Assembly: GCA_964514565.1 (NCBI GenBank)
Contig: CAZERA010000001.1
Span: forward strand, 552,080-592,079
Source: an uncultured Candidatus Peribacteria bacterium
GTDB lineage: Bacteria; Patescibacteriota; Gracilibacteria; RBG-16-42-10
Length of the DNA stretch: 40,000 bases
Reading direction: 5' to 3'
In this document: one piece after another, positions 25,392 through 31,096 of the stretch
Layout of the letters: every line of letters starts with the position of its first letter
Numbering within the stretch: the stretch's first letter is position 1
Notes under the pieces: generated by a model
Databases searched by the model: none
Told to the model about the DNA's origin: nothing
Seen by the model: only the letters and a program-made list of their open reading frames with translations
Made by a program: the position numbers and the translations under genes

Positions 25392-27242
25392 ATGTTTTTT
25401 AGTCCTAAACGTCTCGCAATAATTGTTTCGTTGGCTACTATCAGTTTTTTTGCGCAAACAACGCAAGCTTCTTATAAGATGTATCCAGCTGGCCAAGCTC
25501 CAGTAGTGATTCCTACTAAACCAGTTTCTTCGACTCCAGTGCTAGCACCGAAATTAGTTCCAACACCAGTGTCGTCTAGTCCTACTCTTAGTGGCCGCTT
25601 GGTGATCTCAGATATTTATTTTAGGAGTTATGAAGCTGACTTTACGGTCTATCCTGATGCACATATGGATGTGACGGAAAAAATTGTTGCTGATGTGGGA
25701 AATCTGACCAACCGGCATGGCATTTTTCAAGTCACTTCTGAGCGTTATCAAGGAGAAAACAATGTTATGCTCGATACGCCGATTAAACTCCAATCAATCA
25801 CGAACTTTGCTGGTCAGTCGATTCCCTTTGAGGAAAATCGTAGTAGCTGGGAACATACGGTTAGTTGGAAAATTGGTGATGCTGATCAACTGATTCATGG
25901 TGCTAATCAATATCAGATCAAGTATCAAGTGGGCAATGTGATCGACACTAACAATTCCCAGTACGACGTCTGGCACTTCGATGTGTTGGGATCATTTTGG
26001 CAGCTTGAAACAGATCGTTTTGCTGCTTATGTGAATTTCCCAGCCAATGCCCAGATAAAAAATATCACGGCAAGTACTATTAAAGCAGGTACCAAGACCA
26101 CTACCCCAGTACAGACTACTTGGGTAACTCCTACTCGCTTGTTGGTACAGACTACTAAAACCGCAGGTAAGGAGGAGGGCGTGACTGTGACTGCTCAGAT
26201 AGCCAGAAATGCTGATGGAAGCAGTATATTCTCTGCTTATCATTTGCCTTGGACTTATACATTGATGCCCATCATAAGCTACAGTCTGCCATTACTGGTT
26301 TTTTTAATAGTTTTTGTACTTTGGTATCGTCATGGTCGTGATGCCAAAACCCATCGTACTATTATTGCTGAATACACCCCTCCAGAAAATTTGTCAGCAA
26401 TGGAAATGGCTTTATTGCTCCGACATGGCCGTTGGCACAATAAGATTATTAGTGTGGGTGTGATGAATCTAGCTGTGAAAGGATTTGTTAAAATTCATAT
26501 TGTTAAGAAACTATGGGGGCTCAGTAAAGAAGTGATGATTGAGAGTATGCTGGATACTGAAAAAAGTGCCAAGATTACTATGGCCGAGTTAGCTCTTTTG
26601 CAAGATTTGATGAGCTGTAGAGGCATCGCAAGTCCCGACGGTATGGTCACCAAATCAGATTTGCAGCTCAGCTTTCGTTATAAAGTAAGTGCTATTGAAG
26701 AACGTACTCGATTGGTTTTAGAAACTAAAAACTATCTAACCAACTCTAGCTGGGATTGGTCTACCACCCTCTATGTAGCTGGCGTTGTCCTGCTGATTGC
26801 TGCTGGTGTCGTATCATCAAACGTCAACTTGTGGCTGGGTATTGCTCTGGGTGTCAGTGCTCTCATTTGTTTTCTCTTCGCGCCATTTATGTATCAAATA
26901 ACACCTATGGGGGCTGAAATGATTGATCGTATCGATGGCTTTAAACTTTTTATGAAAAAAGTAGAACAATATCGCCAAGTCTTTTTTGAAAAAGAAGGAG
27001 ATTTGTTGGATTTGCTACCTTATGCGATGGCTTTTGGTTTTACCAAACTCTGGCTAGCCAAGCTTAAAAATATTGTTTCACCAGAACAATGGCAGCGTTT
27101 TAATATGACTGTTTTAGCTGGTACTGGCAGTATTGGTGATGTTACTTCTTCAATTAGCTCAATCAGTAGCGCTATCTCTAGCAGTGTTTCTTCTAGCGGA
27201 GGAGGTAGTGGTGGTGGTAGTAGTGGGGGAGGGGGATGGTAG
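25392..27242 (+). CDS. DUF2207-family membrane protein
   Basis: Signal peptide, large extracytoplasmic domain, TM helices around WYRHGRD, and the characteristic C-terminal Ser/Gly tail SSGGGSGGGSSGGGGW. Confidence 0.7.
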   Translation: MFFSPKRLAIIVSLATISFFAQTTQASYKMYPAGQAPVVIPTKPVSSTPVLAPKLVPTPVSSSPTLSGRLVISDIYFRSYEADFTVYPDAHMDVTEKIVADVGNLTNRHGIFQVTSERYQGENNVMLDTPIKLQSITNFAGQSIPFEENRSSWEHTVSWKIGDADQLIHGANQYQIKYQVGNVIDTNNSQYDVWHFDVLGSFWQLETDRFAAYVNFPANAQIKNITASTIKAGTKTTTPVQTTWVTPTRLLVQTTKTAGKEEGVTVTAQIARNADGSSIFSAYHLPWTYTLMPIISYSLPLLVFLIVFVLWYRHGRDAKTHRTIIAEYTPPENLSAMEMALLLRHGRWHNKIISVGVMNLAVKGFVKIHIVKKLWGLSKEVMIESMLDTEKSAKITMAELALLQDLMSCRGIASPDGMVTKSDLQLSFRYKVSAIEERTRLVLETKNYLTNSSWDWSTTLYVAGVVLLIAAGVVSSNVNLWLGIALGVSALICFLFAPFMYQITPMGAEMIDRIDGFKLFMKKVEQYRQVFFEKEGDLLDLLPYAMAFGFTKLWLAKLKNIVSPEQWQRFNMTVLAGTGSIGDVTSSISSISSAISSSVSSSGGGSGGGSSGGGGW

Positions 27243-27278
27243 AAGAAGAGGTCCGAGGTTTTTTTGGGGGGGGCTGCT

Positions 27279-27827
27279 CTATACTTTGATGATGCCGCGT
27301 GCTTCAATTGCTTCTTTGATCATGTGGGGGCGACTGATATTGGCTAAGTAGACTTGATTGTTGTCCGGTGTAAATTGGACCACCAAGGTGCCATAGCCAA
27401 ATAATTTGCCCCAGAGGGTTTGTTGTAGAGTGACTGAACGGATTTGATTGAGGGAATAATCTTTTTCAGTAGTGATGCTTTTTCTCGCCACATAGCTCAG
27501 TTTGTCCGGGCTCAAAATATAATAGACTCTACCTCGGCTGATCAGATAATACAGCAATCCAATCGCAACTGAGAGTATTGCCAGCATAAAAACATCTGTA
27601 CCGGTCCATTCAGTTAGAAAACCTAAAATCACTACTACAAAGTAAATTACTAAGAGAATACCAAAGGTTACTAGTACTACTAGCAAGGTATTTAGAATCC
27701 TAAATATAGCTGCTTGGCGGATAATAAAAGGAGGAGCATCTGGTGGTGGGGGAGATGACGGTGGTGTTTGCTGTGGTTCTGGAATGGTAGTTTGTGCAGC
27801 AGGAATGGTAGTTTTGATCTCGTCCAT
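27279..27827 (-). CDS. Membrane protein with bacterial PH (bPH_2 / YdbS-like) domain and Pro-rich N-terminus
   Basis: Two TM helices are followed by YYILSPDKLSYVARKSITTEKDYSLNQIRSVTLQQTLWGKLFGYGTLVV, the typical bPH_2 pattern. ATG 27827 preferred; ATG 27860 is possible. Confidence 0.6.
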   Translation of the reverse strand: MDEIKTTIPAAQTTIPEPQQTPPSSPPPPDAPPFIIRQAAIFRILNTLLVVLVTFGILLVIYFVVVILGFLTEWTGTDVFMLAILSVAIGLLYYLISRGRVYYILSPDKLSYVARKSITTEKDYSLNQIRSVTLQQTLWGKLFGYGTLVVQFTPDNNQVYLANISRPHMIKEAIEARGIIKV

Positions 27828-27948
27828 ACAAGTTTTGATAATGAAGCAGAATGACTTCAATACTACTAGGCATTGGCGAGCATGACAATGGCAACAAGAT
27901 AGGCTTAAAACTGCTAATGCTTAATGTGTCTAAAGGGTTTTGTAAAAA

Positions 27949-27977
27949 TTGACTTCGTGCGCTTATAGCACTAGTAT
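27949..27977 (+). promoter_or_regulatory. Sigma70-type promoter of the MarR gene with an embedded partial palindrome
   Basis: -35 TTGACT (27949-27954), a 17-nt spacer containing GTGCGCTTATAGCAC, and -10 TAGTAT (27972-27977), 27 nt before the ATG. Confidence 0.4.
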
Positions 27978-28004
27978 TTTAAATCCCAAGTAACTTGAAT
28001 ATTT

Positions 28005-28448
28005 ATGCAAAAACGTGAGAAAACAATTCAAGGGATTATGGACTCCTTTCATACTGTCAGAAGATCTTTCAACACCAATCACCTCGGTATTCGCAATAAA
28101 GGAGAAATTACCCCTGCTCAATGGCCTATTGTTTCTAGTCTCAAAGACCGCCCTACTATCGCGCTCAAAGAACTAACTAGCATGCTACATATTAGTAGTA
28201 GTGCTATCACCCAACTCGTCGATGCCTTGGTCAAAAAAGGTTATATCGTCCGCAAAGAATCATCAGTAGATCGTCGTGTGATTTTGATCGAGCTAACTAA
28301 GAAAGCAAAAGATTCTTTAGCTATCATGCGTGAAAAAGCAGTAGCACATTTGATTACCGCTTTCTCCAATCTCACTGATGAAGAGCTAGTTACCTTTCAA
28401 GCCCTGAGTGAAAAAGTAGCTACAAATATTAAGAGCCAGGAGGGGTAG
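28005..28448 (+). CDS. MarR-family transcriptional regulator
   Basis: 147 aa. Winged-helix block ITPAQWPIVSSLKDRPTIALKELTSMLHISSSAITQLVDALVKKGYIVRKESSVDRRVILIELT. Confidence 0.85.
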   Translation: MQKREKTIQGIMDSFHTVRRSFNTNHLGIRNKGEITPAQWPIVSSLKDRPTIALKELTSMLHISSSAITQLVDALVKKGYIVRKESSVDRRVILIELTKKAKDSLAIMREKAVAHLITAFSNLTDEELVTFQALSEKVATNIKSQEG

Positions 28449-28571
28449 TCTGATATAGTGAATAATGAATGATGAAAAACTAATAGTTTAGCGATATGCA
28501 GTCCGTCAAGCGGAGACGGCAGTCACTAAACTTTTCACTACTCATTATTAATTATTCACTCCCTTTCTCAT
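28438..28571 (+). repeat. Element 'F' copy 1: ~134-bp internally palindromic repeat
   Basis: Aligns without gaps to 29032-29153 with about 15 mismatches in ~122 nt by hand count. The 5' arm AGTGAATAATGAATGATGAAAA pairs imperfectly with the 3' arm TTTTCACTACTCATTATTAATTATTCACT. Inner half-sites are AGTTTAGCG / CACTAAACT, and the central hairpin is CCGTC-AAGCGGA-GACGG. It overlaps the MarR stop and the DUF1801 ATG. Confidence 0.75.
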
Positions 28572-29022
28572 GAATAGCTCCGCCAAAACAGTAATTGCCT
28601 ACCTAGAATCTTTGCCCGTCGATCGCAAAGTGGCAATCAGTGAAGTTCGAGATATTATTCTTGCTCACTTACCTGTAGGCTACGAAGAAGTGATGCAGTA
28701 TGGCATGATCTCCTATGTCGTTCCCTTTTCTCGCTATCCCAAGACATACAACAATCAGCCACTTACAATGATCTCTCTTGCTTCCCAGAAAAATCACATG
28801 GCGGTTTATTTGATGTGTGTTTATGGTGATCGCAAAACCCGTGATAAATTTATTGCTGATTATCAAGCTACTGGTAAAAAACTAGAGATTGGCAAGTCGT
28901 GCCTTCGTTTCAAAAAAACGGCTGACTTGGCATTGGCTGTAATTGGCGACTTGGTAGCACAGATATCGGTCGATCAGTTTATTCAGTATTATGAAAAAAG
29001 CAGATCGCTTGTTAAGAACTAG
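28570..29022 (+). CDS. DUF1801 (YdhG-like) domain protein
   Basis: 150 aa. VIAYLESLP...R.AISEVRDIIL...EEVMQYGMISY...HMAVYL...GKSCLRFKK fits the YdhG/DUF1801 pattern. Confidence 0.65.
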   Translation: MNSSAKTVIAYLESLPVDRKVAISEVRDIILAHLPVGYEEVMQYGMISYVVPFSRYPKTYNNQPLTMISLASQKNHMAVYLMCVYGDRKTRDKFIADYQATGKKLEIGKSCLRFKKTADLALAVIGDLVAQISVDQFIQYYEKSRSLVKN

Positions 29023-29153
29023 GAGGAGGGGCTGATGGAGTGAACAATGAATGATGAAAAACTAATAGTTTAGCGACATGCAGTCGGCCAAGCGGAGACT
29101 ATAGCCGCTAAACTTTTCACTATTCATTATTAGTTATTAACTCGCTTTCTCAT
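29021..29153 (+). repeat. Element 'F' copy 2
   Basis: Same orientation as copy 1. Inner half-sites AGTTTAGCG / CGCTAAACT are perfectly complementary here, while the central hairpin and outer stem are more degraded. Confidence 0.75.
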
Positions 29154-29195
29154 AGCCTCCAGCCCTGCTTTTGGCATTACCCCAAATTAGTTGGT

Positions 29196-30920
29196 TTAAC
29201 CGAAAGTGAAGGCAAATGCTTTGATGCCTATGGTTTCAAATTGAATAGTGAGGACATGGGCAGCAGTATCTTTGGTATTGTGGACCAAGTGGTAGAGTCG
29301 GTCACTATCCAAAAGCACGGCGCCATTTTTGACGTCATTGCCAGCTTGATCGTCCTTGATAGGTTTGCCATCAAGCAGAATTTTTAATAGGCCGGATCCG
29401 GCTGGTGGGTTGAGTACCAAGTACACATTTTGCCCGGTAAAACGGAAGCTCAAAGTATTGCCAGCTGCACTAGTAATAAATTGTTTGTCTTGTACCCACT
29501 GGCCTGTCAGTGTCCACTGGTCATTTTTGAGCTCATCAACTGTTGATGCTGCTCGATAGTTTGAGCGGCGATCTGTGCCCAAATAAGTTTCTGGTGATTG
29601 GTCTTGATTTGGTGTTGTATCCACTGCTGTAGGCGCCATGGTTGGTAGGCTTAGGTCTTGTTTCGCTTCCTTGAGTAGGGCTCGGATGTTTGCTTCAGTT
29701 TCTTCATAATGACCTTCACCAAAATGGGTAGCTCGGAGATTACCTTGCGCATCGATTAAATATTCAGCTGGCCAGTATTGGTTGTTGTAGGCACTCCAAG
29801 TTGCAAAGTCATTGTCTTGCGCGACAGGGTAATGAATCTTAAAGTTCTCAATTGCTTTGGCTACATTGTCAGTATTTTTTTCGAACGCAAACTCAGGTGA
29901 ATGTACTCCTAGTACCACCAAGCCTTGATCTTTGTATGTATCATACCAGCTTGTGACATGCGGCAATGTACGAATACAATTGATACAAGAATAAGTCCAA
30001 AAGTCGATTAGTACGACTTTACCTTTGAGCTGAGCTAAAGTGAGTGGATCACTATTGAGCCAATGAGTAATTCCTTGTAATTCAGGTGCCTTACCTAATA
30101 CTGGCAGACCACTGAGCGCACCACCGATGACAGTAGCAGCAGTAGGTGCCACACTTTGTTCCGGAGCACCATGCAGCGCCTGTAATTGTTTTTGAACAAT
30201 GTCGCTTTGTTCTAACTGTTGGGTGAGACCAGTGCTAATAGAGCTAGGTAACTTTGATAATACGTTGTTTTGAATTACTTGATCCAAGCCAAATAACATC
30301 GCTAAAGCTGTGACAATCATAATCACACCAAAACCGATTTGTAGTTTGGGGGCAATTTTGTTGAGGCTTTTGATTCGTTTAATTAAAGTCTGACCACCAT
30401 ATATCAGTGCCAGAAGTGGGATACTAGTACCCAATGCATAGGCGATGATGATTAGTACTGATACCAGATTGAGACTACTAGTAGCAGCTAAAGCAATTAC
30501 TGAACCAACAATCGGACCGACACAAGGTGTCCACACTAGTCCCAAACTAATACCGACTAAGATACCACCTAAGAAGTCTTTGCGTTGTGAGTTATTGCCA
30601 GTTTTTGGCATCAGTCTACTCACCATACTTTCGAATGCCACTAGGAGTTTAGGTATAAGCAGCAGCACACCAAAAGCCAACAAAATGACCACCGCAACTG
30701 TGCGTAATACTGTCGGATCCAAACCTAAGTACTTAGTTAAATAACTAAGAGCTAAAGTGAAAAAAGTAAAACTAGCTACCAATCCAACCACAATACCCAA
30801 AGGACGTTGTTTGCCACCAGTCACACCAGCAGAAAGCACCAATGGCAAAATCGGCAAGATACAAGGAGCAAGAATCGTAGCAATACCAGCCAGAAACGCG
30901 AATAAAACAAGGATATACAT
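29196..30920 (-). CDS. Thiol:disulfide interchange fusion: CcdA/DsbD-like membrane domain, TlpA/ResA-like thioredoxin domain and a C-terminal beta-rich domain
   Basis: N-terminal FLAGIATILAPCILPILP and VWTPCVGPI are the two Cys-containing CcdA helices. VLIDFWTYSCINCIRTLPH is the thioredoxin CxxC. YPVAQDN and YWPAEYLID are TlpA-like. Confidence 0.8.
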   Translation of the reverse strand: MYILVLFAFLAGIATILAPCILPILPLVLSAGVTGGKQRPLGIVVGLVASFTFFTLALSYLTKYLGLDPTVLRTVAVVILLAFGVLLLIPKLLVAFESMVSRLMPKTGNNSQRKDFLGGILVGISLGLVWTPCVGPIVGSVIALAATSSLNLVSVLIIIAYALGTSIPLLALIYGGQTLIKRIKSLNKIAPKLQIGFGVIMIVTALAMLFGLDQVIQNNVLSKLPSSISTGLTQQLEQSDIVQKQLQALHGAPEQSVAPTAATVIGGALSGLPVLGKAPELQGITHWLNSDPLTLAQLKGKVVLIDFWTYSCINCIRTLPHVTSWYDTYKDQGLVVLGVHSPEFAFEKNTDNVAKAIENFKIHYPVAQDNDFATWSAYNNQYWPAEYLIDAQGNLRATHFGEGHYEETEANIRALLKEAKQDLSLPTMAPTAVDTTPNQDQSPETYLGTDRRSNYRAASTVDELKNDQWTLTGQWVQDKQFITSAAGNTLSFRFTGQNVYLVLNPPAGSGLLKILLDGKPIKDDQAGNDVKNGAVLLDSDRLYHLVHNTKDTAAHVLTIQFETIGIKAFAFTFG

Positions 30921-30932
30921 AAAGAATTATAA

Positions 30933-30945
30933 TTTAGCCGCTAAA
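30933..30945. promoter_or_regulatory. 6-1-6 palindrome TTTAGC-C-GCTAAA abutting a -10 box just upstream of the CcdA-thioredoxin gene (candidate operator)
   Basis: On the minus strand the order is AGTTTAGCGGCTAAA, then T, then TATAAT (30931-30926), then 5 nt, then the ATG at 30920. The half-sites are the same words as the inner half-sites of the F repeats. Confidence 0.3.
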
Positions 30946-31096
30946 CTCTTTGCTTCTTACCTTCGTGACTAATTTCCTGAAGGATTAATAATCCCAATGT
31001 ATAACCTAATCGGATTCGAAGCAAAACCGTGTTGATGATGCTAAACACTAGCAATACTGCTTACTTTACAGTATTATCTACTCTTCGTAATTTATT

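Follow-up and report, generated by a model that had tools for sequence, protein, structure and literature searches.

A lineage-specific family of heptamer-armed palindromes and a probable local duplication of a MarR/DUF1801 junction in a Candidatus Peribacteria genome

We analysed a window of 40,000 nucleotides from an uncultured Candidatus Peribacteria bacterium (assembly GCA_964514565.1, contig CAZERA010000001.1, positions 552,080–592,079 of the forward strand), in which a gene for a DUF1801 protein lies between two near-identical palindromic repeats in direct orientation, here called copy 1 and copy 2. The genome is that of a Gracilibacteria-class member of the candidate phyla radiation (CPR) and comprises 1.12 Mb in 7 contigs, with 42% G+C and a completeness of 92.7%. 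The palindrome core belongs to a family of non-coding palindromic elements specific to this lineage. Sites of the family are occupied in some relatives and empty in others, and copy 2 is preceded by a duplicated stretch of host sequence. We propose that copy 2 itself probably arose by local segmental duplication of the junction between the DUF1801 gene and the MarR-family gene upstream of it, carrying along a palindrome that belongs to the dispersed family.

The locus begins with a MarR-family regulator gene (28005–28448, + strand, 147 aa, Pfam MarR E = 1.4e-14), followed by copy 1 (28457–28560, +), the DUF1801 (PF08818) gene (28570–29022, +, 150 aa, Pfam E = 5.2e-13) and copy 2 (29039–29142, +, direct orientation to copy 1). 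A gene for a DsbD/CcdA–thioredoxin fusion (DsbD-Trx; Pfam DsbD_TM, AhpC-TSA and Thioredoxin_10) is convergent with DUF1801 at 29196–30920 on the − strand. These gene calls agree with the order MarR, repeat, DUF1801, repeat described in an earlier note on this DNA. The two near-identical, ungapped repeats of that note were also recovered: 28450–28571 and 29032–29153 align over 122 nt at 88% identity, and a gapped local alignment, with two 1-nt gaps, widens the similarity to 28411–28571 against 28995–29153. The repeat of copy 1 starts 2 nt past the MarR stop and ends on the ATG of DUF1801. Copy 2 lies downstream of the DUF1801 stop and has ATA where copy 1 has ATG, a difference pointed out previously and seen directly in the sequence.

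Each copy is an imperfect inverted repeat of ~104 nt, with 38-nt arms (28457–28494 and 28523–28560 in copy 1; 29038–29075 and 29106–29143 in copy 2) that are 74–76% complementary. The inner stem of copy 1 is AGTTTAGCG / CGCTAAACT-like and encloses a centre with a degenerate TCCGC-CAA-GCGGA mini-hairpin. As single-stranded DNA, each strand of each copy folds into a long hairpin, with energies between −16.6 and −19.2 kcal/mol and z between −2.9 and −4.7 (0/200 shuffles fold as well). The inverted arms and the folding of both strands agree with the ~100-nt imperfect hairpin first suggested for each copy.

We searched the whole genome for the family using BLAST and two rounds of nhmmer. The searches returned 15 full copies and 3–4 solo arms, spread over six contigs and in both orientations. 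Of the full copies, eight are on contig C1, C3 has an adjacent two, C4 and C5 have two each, and C6 has one. The copy-number check that had been proposed for the cassette idea discussed below was therefore answered in two parts: many copies are indeed dispersed genome-wide, but the other copies do not bracket open reading frames (ORFs). The remaining 13 full copies are single or, once, form an adjacent pair, and DUF1801 is the only bracketed ORF. The adjacent pair (C3:102220–102313 and C3:102325–102422) is a second direct-orientation pair, situated in a convergent gap with no gene between its members. On a crude ORF map, family copies occupy tandem, convergent and divergent gene gaps, and often span from a few bases past a stop codon to a few bases before the next start. 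The presence of copies in gaps of every orientation excludes a pure terminator role.

The arm is composed of four degenerate 7-nt units with the consensus AGTGAAT, AATGAAT, AATGAAA and AACTAAT. Measured over 28 arms, the lag-7 match is 0.62 versus 0.34 in shuffles (z = 18.5) and the lag-14 match is 0.575 (z = 12.5). Within the arms lie a 9-bp stem (AGTTTAGCG / CGCTAAACT) and a variable centre, which in the younger copies holds a small GC hairpin. As read from the consensus, a stop codon is reached in each of the three frames within five codons at both element ends. Every arm finds its partner within 140 nt, so there is no gene-bearing copy of this arm type in the genome.

Comparison of the arms indicates how the family spread. 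The mean similarity is 18.1 between left arms and 17.4 between right arms, and the mean left-to-right complementarity is 13.8. Left arms are therefore closest to left arms, and right arms to right arms, which argues for descent by copying from an asymmetric master. Complementarity within a copy (11.5) does not rise above that between copies, so that the lack of compensatory differences reported earlier for the two copies holds across the family. This lack of compensation, together with the dispersal, the arm asymmetry and the empty sites in congeners described below, sustains the earlier preference for repeated DNA of the MITE (miniature inverted-repeat transposable element) or REP (repetitive extragenic palindromic) kind over a selected RNA fold. 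In its behaviour the family is like selfish or neutral repeated DNA that spreads by copying. We conclude that these repeats form a new, lineage-specific family within a familiar class, that of small palindromic repeats dispersed between genes; its arms are built of heptamers and no transposase was recognised.

BLAST shows the family to be nearly absent from three congeners (G001–G003), and exact-word scans did not find it in other species-representative genomes or in Joint Genome Institute (JGI) metagenomes. In these scans an 18-mer against 185,579 species genomes gave 13 single matches in unrelated phyla, about the number expected by chance, a 21-mer gave one match, inside a coding sequence, and a 25-mer in the JGI metagenomes gave none; phage and plasmid collections gave no match. 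We compared six insertion sites with the congeners G001 and G002. Four are empty in one or both of them, namely this locus, the 596-kb copy, C4:5 kb and C4:21 kb, the last with a 17-nt spacer in the congener. The C5:52-kb site holds an orthologous, diverged palindrome of ~80 nt in both congeners, and the 175-kb copy proved to lie at a rearranged site. This mix of empty and shared sites indicates a family that is old at some positions and has expanded in this lineage. The family thus has terminal inverted repeats (the 38-nt arms), many dispersed copies of ~100 nt and insertion polymorphism between relatives, all traits of MITEs; target-site duplications were not demonstrable, since the relatives with empty sites are only ~75% identical and the boundaries are not placeable to the base.

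We then compared the MarR/DUF1801 locus with closer relatives (L067, L068 and L083), which were found in metagenome assemblies by protein look-up. At the DNA level of MarR, these three and the present genome form a clade at 85–90% identity, and G001 and G002 stand at ~75%. One locus is found in five structural states among these close relatives. In G001, MarR is followed by 30 nt and DsbD-Trx, with no repeat and no DUF1801. L067 has MarR, a diverged copy 1, DUF1801, a 33-nt spacer and DsbD-Trx. L068 has MarR, copy 1, DUF1801, copy 2 and then a different downstream gene. L083, like L082, has MarR, a 5'-truncated copy, 38 nt, a full copy and DsbD-Trx, without DUF1801. Finally, unrelated genes follow MarR in G002, L084–L087 and L088. 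The DNA that follows MarR is a hot spot of change. All four clade genomes have copy 1 at the MarR/DUF1801 junction, with its counterparts at the matching position in L067 (diverged), L068 and L083 (5'-truncated). The 33-nt spacer of L067 is homologous to window positions 29165–29195, which identifies 29023–29164 as an inserted 142-nt block that includes the flanks of the copy 2 palindrome.

This block carries the evidence for duplication. The stretch here called t (28411–28456, +) comprises ~12 final MarR codons, the stop and 8 nt, and it is native host sequence because the MarR C-terminal codons are homologous in G001 and G002, both of which lack the repeat. A copy of t is found again upstream of copy 2. 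In L068, ~40 nt of the upstream flank of copy 2 match that genome's own MarR tail, including a 13-nt exact run, and 0/5000 shuffles reach the score. In the present genome the corresponding stretch is t-prime, GAGGAGGGGCTGATGG (29023–29038, +), a degenerate MarR-tail duplicate recognized by three-way and local alignment, which forms the opening part of the 142-nt block missing from L067. The similarity of this upstream flank to its own MarR tail remains significant, being reached by 19/5000 shuffles, although the flank is shorter than that of L068, as would follow from a 19-nt deletion.

Copy 1 is followed by the stretch h (28561–28585, +), the short junction CCCTTTCTC with the first DUF1801 codons, and a stretch resembling h is found again downstream of copy 2. 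This stretch, h-prime (29143–29164, +), consists of CGCTTTCTCAT and then a degenerate DUF1801-start-like sequence, and it ends the inserted block; the native spacer, homologous to that of L067, restarts at 29165 with CTGCTTTTGG. In this genome the similarity between the downstream flank and the DUF1801 start is significant, being reached by 50/5000 shuffles. The copy 2 flanks of this genome and of L068 both miss TAG-T of the MarR stop, which argues for one origin of copy 2. At two positions each genome's copy 2 flank follows its own MarR tail, suggesting later gene conversion between the copies. Given its duplicate host flank, copy 2 is most likely not the product of transposition or of attC-type recombination.

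From these comparisons we infer the route of the duplication and its single origin, as we would any cellular role of the family. The duplication most likely started by unequal exchange or a template switch at a short A-rich microhomology between AAAAGTAG in the MarR tail and a AAAAATAG-like stretch in the DUF1801 end; a direct reading of L068 places its left junction at such a microhomology between the MarR tail and the DUF1801 end. Such an exchange would yield a tandem duplication of MarR tail, palindrome and DUF1801, from which the second DUF1801 gene body would then be lost, and direct copy-and-paste of the ~140–190-nt junction would be an equivalent route. The duplicate lies directly after the DUF1801 stop and comprises MarR tail, palindrome and, in this genome, a DUF1801-start-like stretch. 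Gene conversion between the copies and small deletions would have led to the present state.

Several observations weigh against the duplication. Copies 1 and 2 are not each other's closest relatives as palindromes, their bodies being 88% identical, compared with 92% for copy 2 and the 596-kb or 175-kb copies; all young copies are 85–92% identical over ~104 nt, and the order of copying is not resolvable from the bodies. The likeness of each flank to its own MarR tail at two positions requires gene conversion or recurrent duplication. In L068 the downstream flank shows no significant similarity to the DUF1801 start (3866/5000 shuffles). If L067 is the sister of this genome, as its DUF1801 identity might indicate (81%, versus 78% for L068), it must have lost copy 2 cleanly. 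The two direct copies of L083, 38 nt apart and without DUF1801, mean that a pair can exist without the gene. Lastly, CTTTCNCAT, a part of the downstream flank, is found after the 175-kb copy as well, and may belong to an element subfamily rather than to host DNA.

Alternatively, two palindromes could have inserted independently into adjacent gaps, with the likeness of the flanks reflecting a preferred target, G-rich or Shine-Dalgarno-like, after a stop codon. The family does enter many gaps, congeners have empty sites, several other copies have a G-rich run (GGGGAG) before them and CTCC after them, L067 has copy 1 alone, and copy 2 is at least as close to distant copies as to copy 1. However, a target preference would not recreate the lineage-specific coding substitutions of the neighbouring gene. 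The repeated MarR tail with its exact run in L068, the upstream flank that tracks the MarR tail of this genome, and the DUF1801-start-like stretch after copy 2 all speak against separate insertions, and we regard them as unlikely.

A further possibility is that each gap keeps its copy out of the cell's need for a structure in cis, such as an RNase III site, an mRNA-stabilizing hairpin, a terminator, an insulator or a protein platform. The hairpins are stable relative to shuffles, the elements span from stop codon to next start, and the diverged palindrome at C5:52 kb has been kept in both G001 and G002. Against this, there is no compensatory evolution, copies also occupy divergent promoter gaps, and the congener gaps work without the element at 4/6 sites. 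A terminator scan found no T-run and no terminator-like site in copy 1 or copy 2, and an Rfam scan of 27000–31000 at permissive E-values gave only chance matches of snoRNA type and no family. We therefore give selection for a cis structure little weight.

The least probable account, and one we consider very doubtful, is a mobile cassette in which DUF1801 moves with one or both palindromes, either as in an integron or as a composite with MITE-like ends. A cassette-like unit reminiscent of attC was the reading offered in the earlier note, and a clean empty site in G001 (neither gene nor repeats), the variable zone after MarR in relatives, and the three different contexts in which DUF1801 occurs in G003, G004 and G006 (54–61% identity) would suit it. 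Yet those homologues have no flanking repeats. The closest DUF1801 homologues lie at this same locus (81% identity in L067, 79% in L068); the closest named protein homologue, at 62% identity, comes from a Candidatus Abawacabacteria assembly. RYYYAAC (R'') and GTTRRRY (R') motifs are absent from both strands of both copies and their flanks, as the note itself had observed together with the missing integrase, and our motif and genome searches concur on both. The genome has a single tyrosine recombinase (PF00589), which is on another contig (C2); it scores as Xer-like and not as IntI, with 245/236 bits for the XerD/XerC models versus 151 bits for the IntI model, all below the cut-offs. No array of ORFs each with an attC site was seen, only the single bracketed ORF. 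Copies elsewhere bracket no ORF, the gene is accompanied in L067 by copy 1 only, and L083 has two copies but no gene. MarR sequence forms the inner flank of copy 2 and is not expected in a transposed composite, and the phage and plasmid collections gave no support. Y1/RAYT (PF01797), rve (PF00665), DDE_Tnp_1 (PF01609) and OrfB_IS605 (PF01385) transposases were not found in the 92.7%-complete genome, other transposase families not having been searched, and neither a gene-bearing master copy nor an autonomous element with the same ends was found in this assembly. A tempting integron-like annotation is thereby removed as wrong.

Among relatives without DUF1801, for which the note had proposed a search, G001 has no repeat and L083 has two. 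The note had also held that its idea would fail if only these two copies existed, as a simple ancient duplication with proportional divergence in relatives. The outcome is mixed: many copies do exist, yet the pair itself is most likely an old duplication that arose locally and that a relative shares, with divergence in proportion.

The duplicated repeats have altered the ends of neighbouring genes. In L068 (4001–4504) the DUF1801 frame has lost its stop and runs for a further 17 codons through the duplicated MarR tail to a TGA inside the repeat arm, giving 167 aa versus 150 aa. In L083 (1055–1117; also in L082) the second repeat replaces the last ~20 codons of DsbD-Trx, so that the stop is a TGA in the arm; the two repeat copies of L083 are 95% identical to each other. 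We also considered the 38-nt spacer between them as a DUF1801 remnant, and rejected it as the match is not significant.

Comparison with known systems places the family among small repeats with distinct features. The short tandemly repeated repetitive (STRR) sequences of heterocystous cyanobacteria are intergenic and species-specific tandem arrays of degenerate 7-nt units, which often abut stop and start codons and, where inverted, can form long hairpins. The TAACTGA heptamer repeats of marine Beggiatoaceae are likewise intergenic and are nearly all direct repeats (PMC4679880). The present family shares with both the tandem degenerate 7-nt units in intergenic DNA, often at stop or start codons, the restriction of the sequence to its species and the ability of inverted arrays to fold into long hairpins. 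It differs in that inverted arrays surround a 9-bp stem and a variable centre, in that the ~104-nt unit is the repeated entity, and in its lineage, a CPR bacterium with a 1.1-Mb genome.

Among elements of similar size, Correia/NEMIS elements of Neisseria, the RUP and BOX elements of pneumococcus and the Rickettsia palindromic elements are ~100 nt long, have long terminal inverted repeats and occur in tens of copies. MITE-like elements are polymorphic for presence and absence in close relatives and are located at gene ends. The present family resembles them in its length, long terminal inverted repeats, dispersal, polymorphism and position at gene ends, whereas neither an autonomous element sharing its ends nor any transposase from the tested families is found here, and the arms are periodic at 7 nt. 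With REP sequences, bacterial interspersed mosaic elements (BIMEs) and REPINs, it shares intergenic palindromes able to pair, as at C3:102220/102325 and in L083. Unlike the REP/REPIN system with its REP-associated tyrosine transposase (RAYT), this genome has no Y1 transposase (PF01797) and the unit is ~3x longer than a REP. The likeness to attC sites of the Vibrio cholerae repeat (VCR) type lies in an ORF bounded by imperfect palindromes of ~100–130 nt in the same orientation; the family differs in having no IntI, no R''/R' sites and no array, in occupying all gap types, and in a duplicated flank made of host coding sequence.

Mobile DNA is usually said to be scarce in reduced CPR genomes, and here one of 1.1 Mb has a young, lineage-specific family of ~104-nt palindromes, although the four transposase families searched gave no match. 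If copy 2 arose as we propose, the locus is a concrete, dated case in which a repeat-bearing junction was duplicated along with host sequence, extending DUF1801 in L068 and moving the DsbD-Trx stop of L083 into a repeat. A broader question concerns the agent that copies heptamer-armed hairpins, and the possible part of PF05635 or Ssn-type proteins in it.

The genome holds six genes for PF05635, the 23S rRNA intervening-sequence protein (C2:66335, C1:78166, C3:108065, C1:18957, C2:61158 and C3:83821), and three small GIY-YIG genes (C1:479111, C1:565700 and C1:604570). Most of these nine genes are bordered by gene-specific heptamer arrays, and all nine have a common GATTTCATAAWT-like motif ~40–70 nt upstream of the start. 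Several of them adjoin tRNA genes. The gene-flanking heptamer types GARGTAA and CAGAGGT are also present as gene-less palindromes. A hairpin of the form YCCGC-N3-4-GCGGR occurs at 51 sites, 40 of them intergenic, versus ~2 expected from a base-composition estimate (for example C1:565481, C1:566071, C1:596063 and C4:5341); it makes up the core of these gene-less palindromes, CCCGC/GCGGG cores occurring with CAGAGGT-type arms and TCCGC/GCGGA cores with GARGTAA-type arms. The first two of these examples, at window positions ~13402 and ~13992, lie on either side of the window's small GIY-YIG gene. Within the family studied here, only two copies have an intact hairpin, and copies 1 and 2 have a degenerate one.

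A GIY-YIG protein, Ssn, and its SRM hairpins have been described together with a degenerate SRM pattern (PMC11893778). This published pattern has one match genome-wide, versus 1–5 in shuffles, and none inside family copies. Most of the nine genes resemble PF05635 cassettes and Ssn systems in being bordered by heptamer arrays, with gene-less palindromes of the same heptamer types elsewhere, but the SRM pattern is at the level of chance and no gene in this genome carries the arm type of the present family. In G036, a genome of the same class and a different family, one PF05635 gene lies between AATGAAT/AATGAAA arrays, which have a 20-nt exact run in common with a copy of the present family. A PF05635 or Ssn-type protein partner for the family is thus a lead.

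Taken further, the palindromes could be non-autonomous members of a hairpin-element system of CPR bacteria, in which the element would consist of heptamer arms and a YCCGC-loop-GCGGR core hairpin, would be serviced in trans by PF05635 four-helix-bundle proteins and/or Ssn-type GIY-YIG single-strand nucleases, and would spread by a copying process able to take adjacent host sequence with it. We consider such a system improbable on present data. If true, it would mean that these elements actively drive local duplication and gene turnover, the MarR/DUF1801 site being a case, in reduced genomes otherwise free of transposases.

Additional observations concern the genetic code and neighbouring palindromes. 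Four G036 loci (L105, L109, L113 and L117) contain PF05635 matches with 2–5 in-frame TGA codons each, consistent with UGA being read as sense in a Gracilibacteria-type code. Translation of the window's own genome works well with table 11. A GGTAAGA-type heptamer-armed palindrome (C2:109113–109231) lies 21 nt upstream of the Xer-like recombinase gene; it is a weak match to the family model, yet belongs to another heptamer family.

Finally, a perfect palindrome, TTTAGC-C-GCTAAA, is found at window positions 30933–30945, directly upstream of a −10-like TATAAT of DsbD-Trx, and is built from the inner half-sites of the repeat family. We considered this site as a MarR operator that shares the repeat half-sites. 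It is not conserved upstream of the L067 or G001 orthologues, the genome has one site at ≤1 mismatch, and looser matches are not clearly above a reversed-pattern control. It is more likely that this palindrome is a collapsed element core than a conserved operator.

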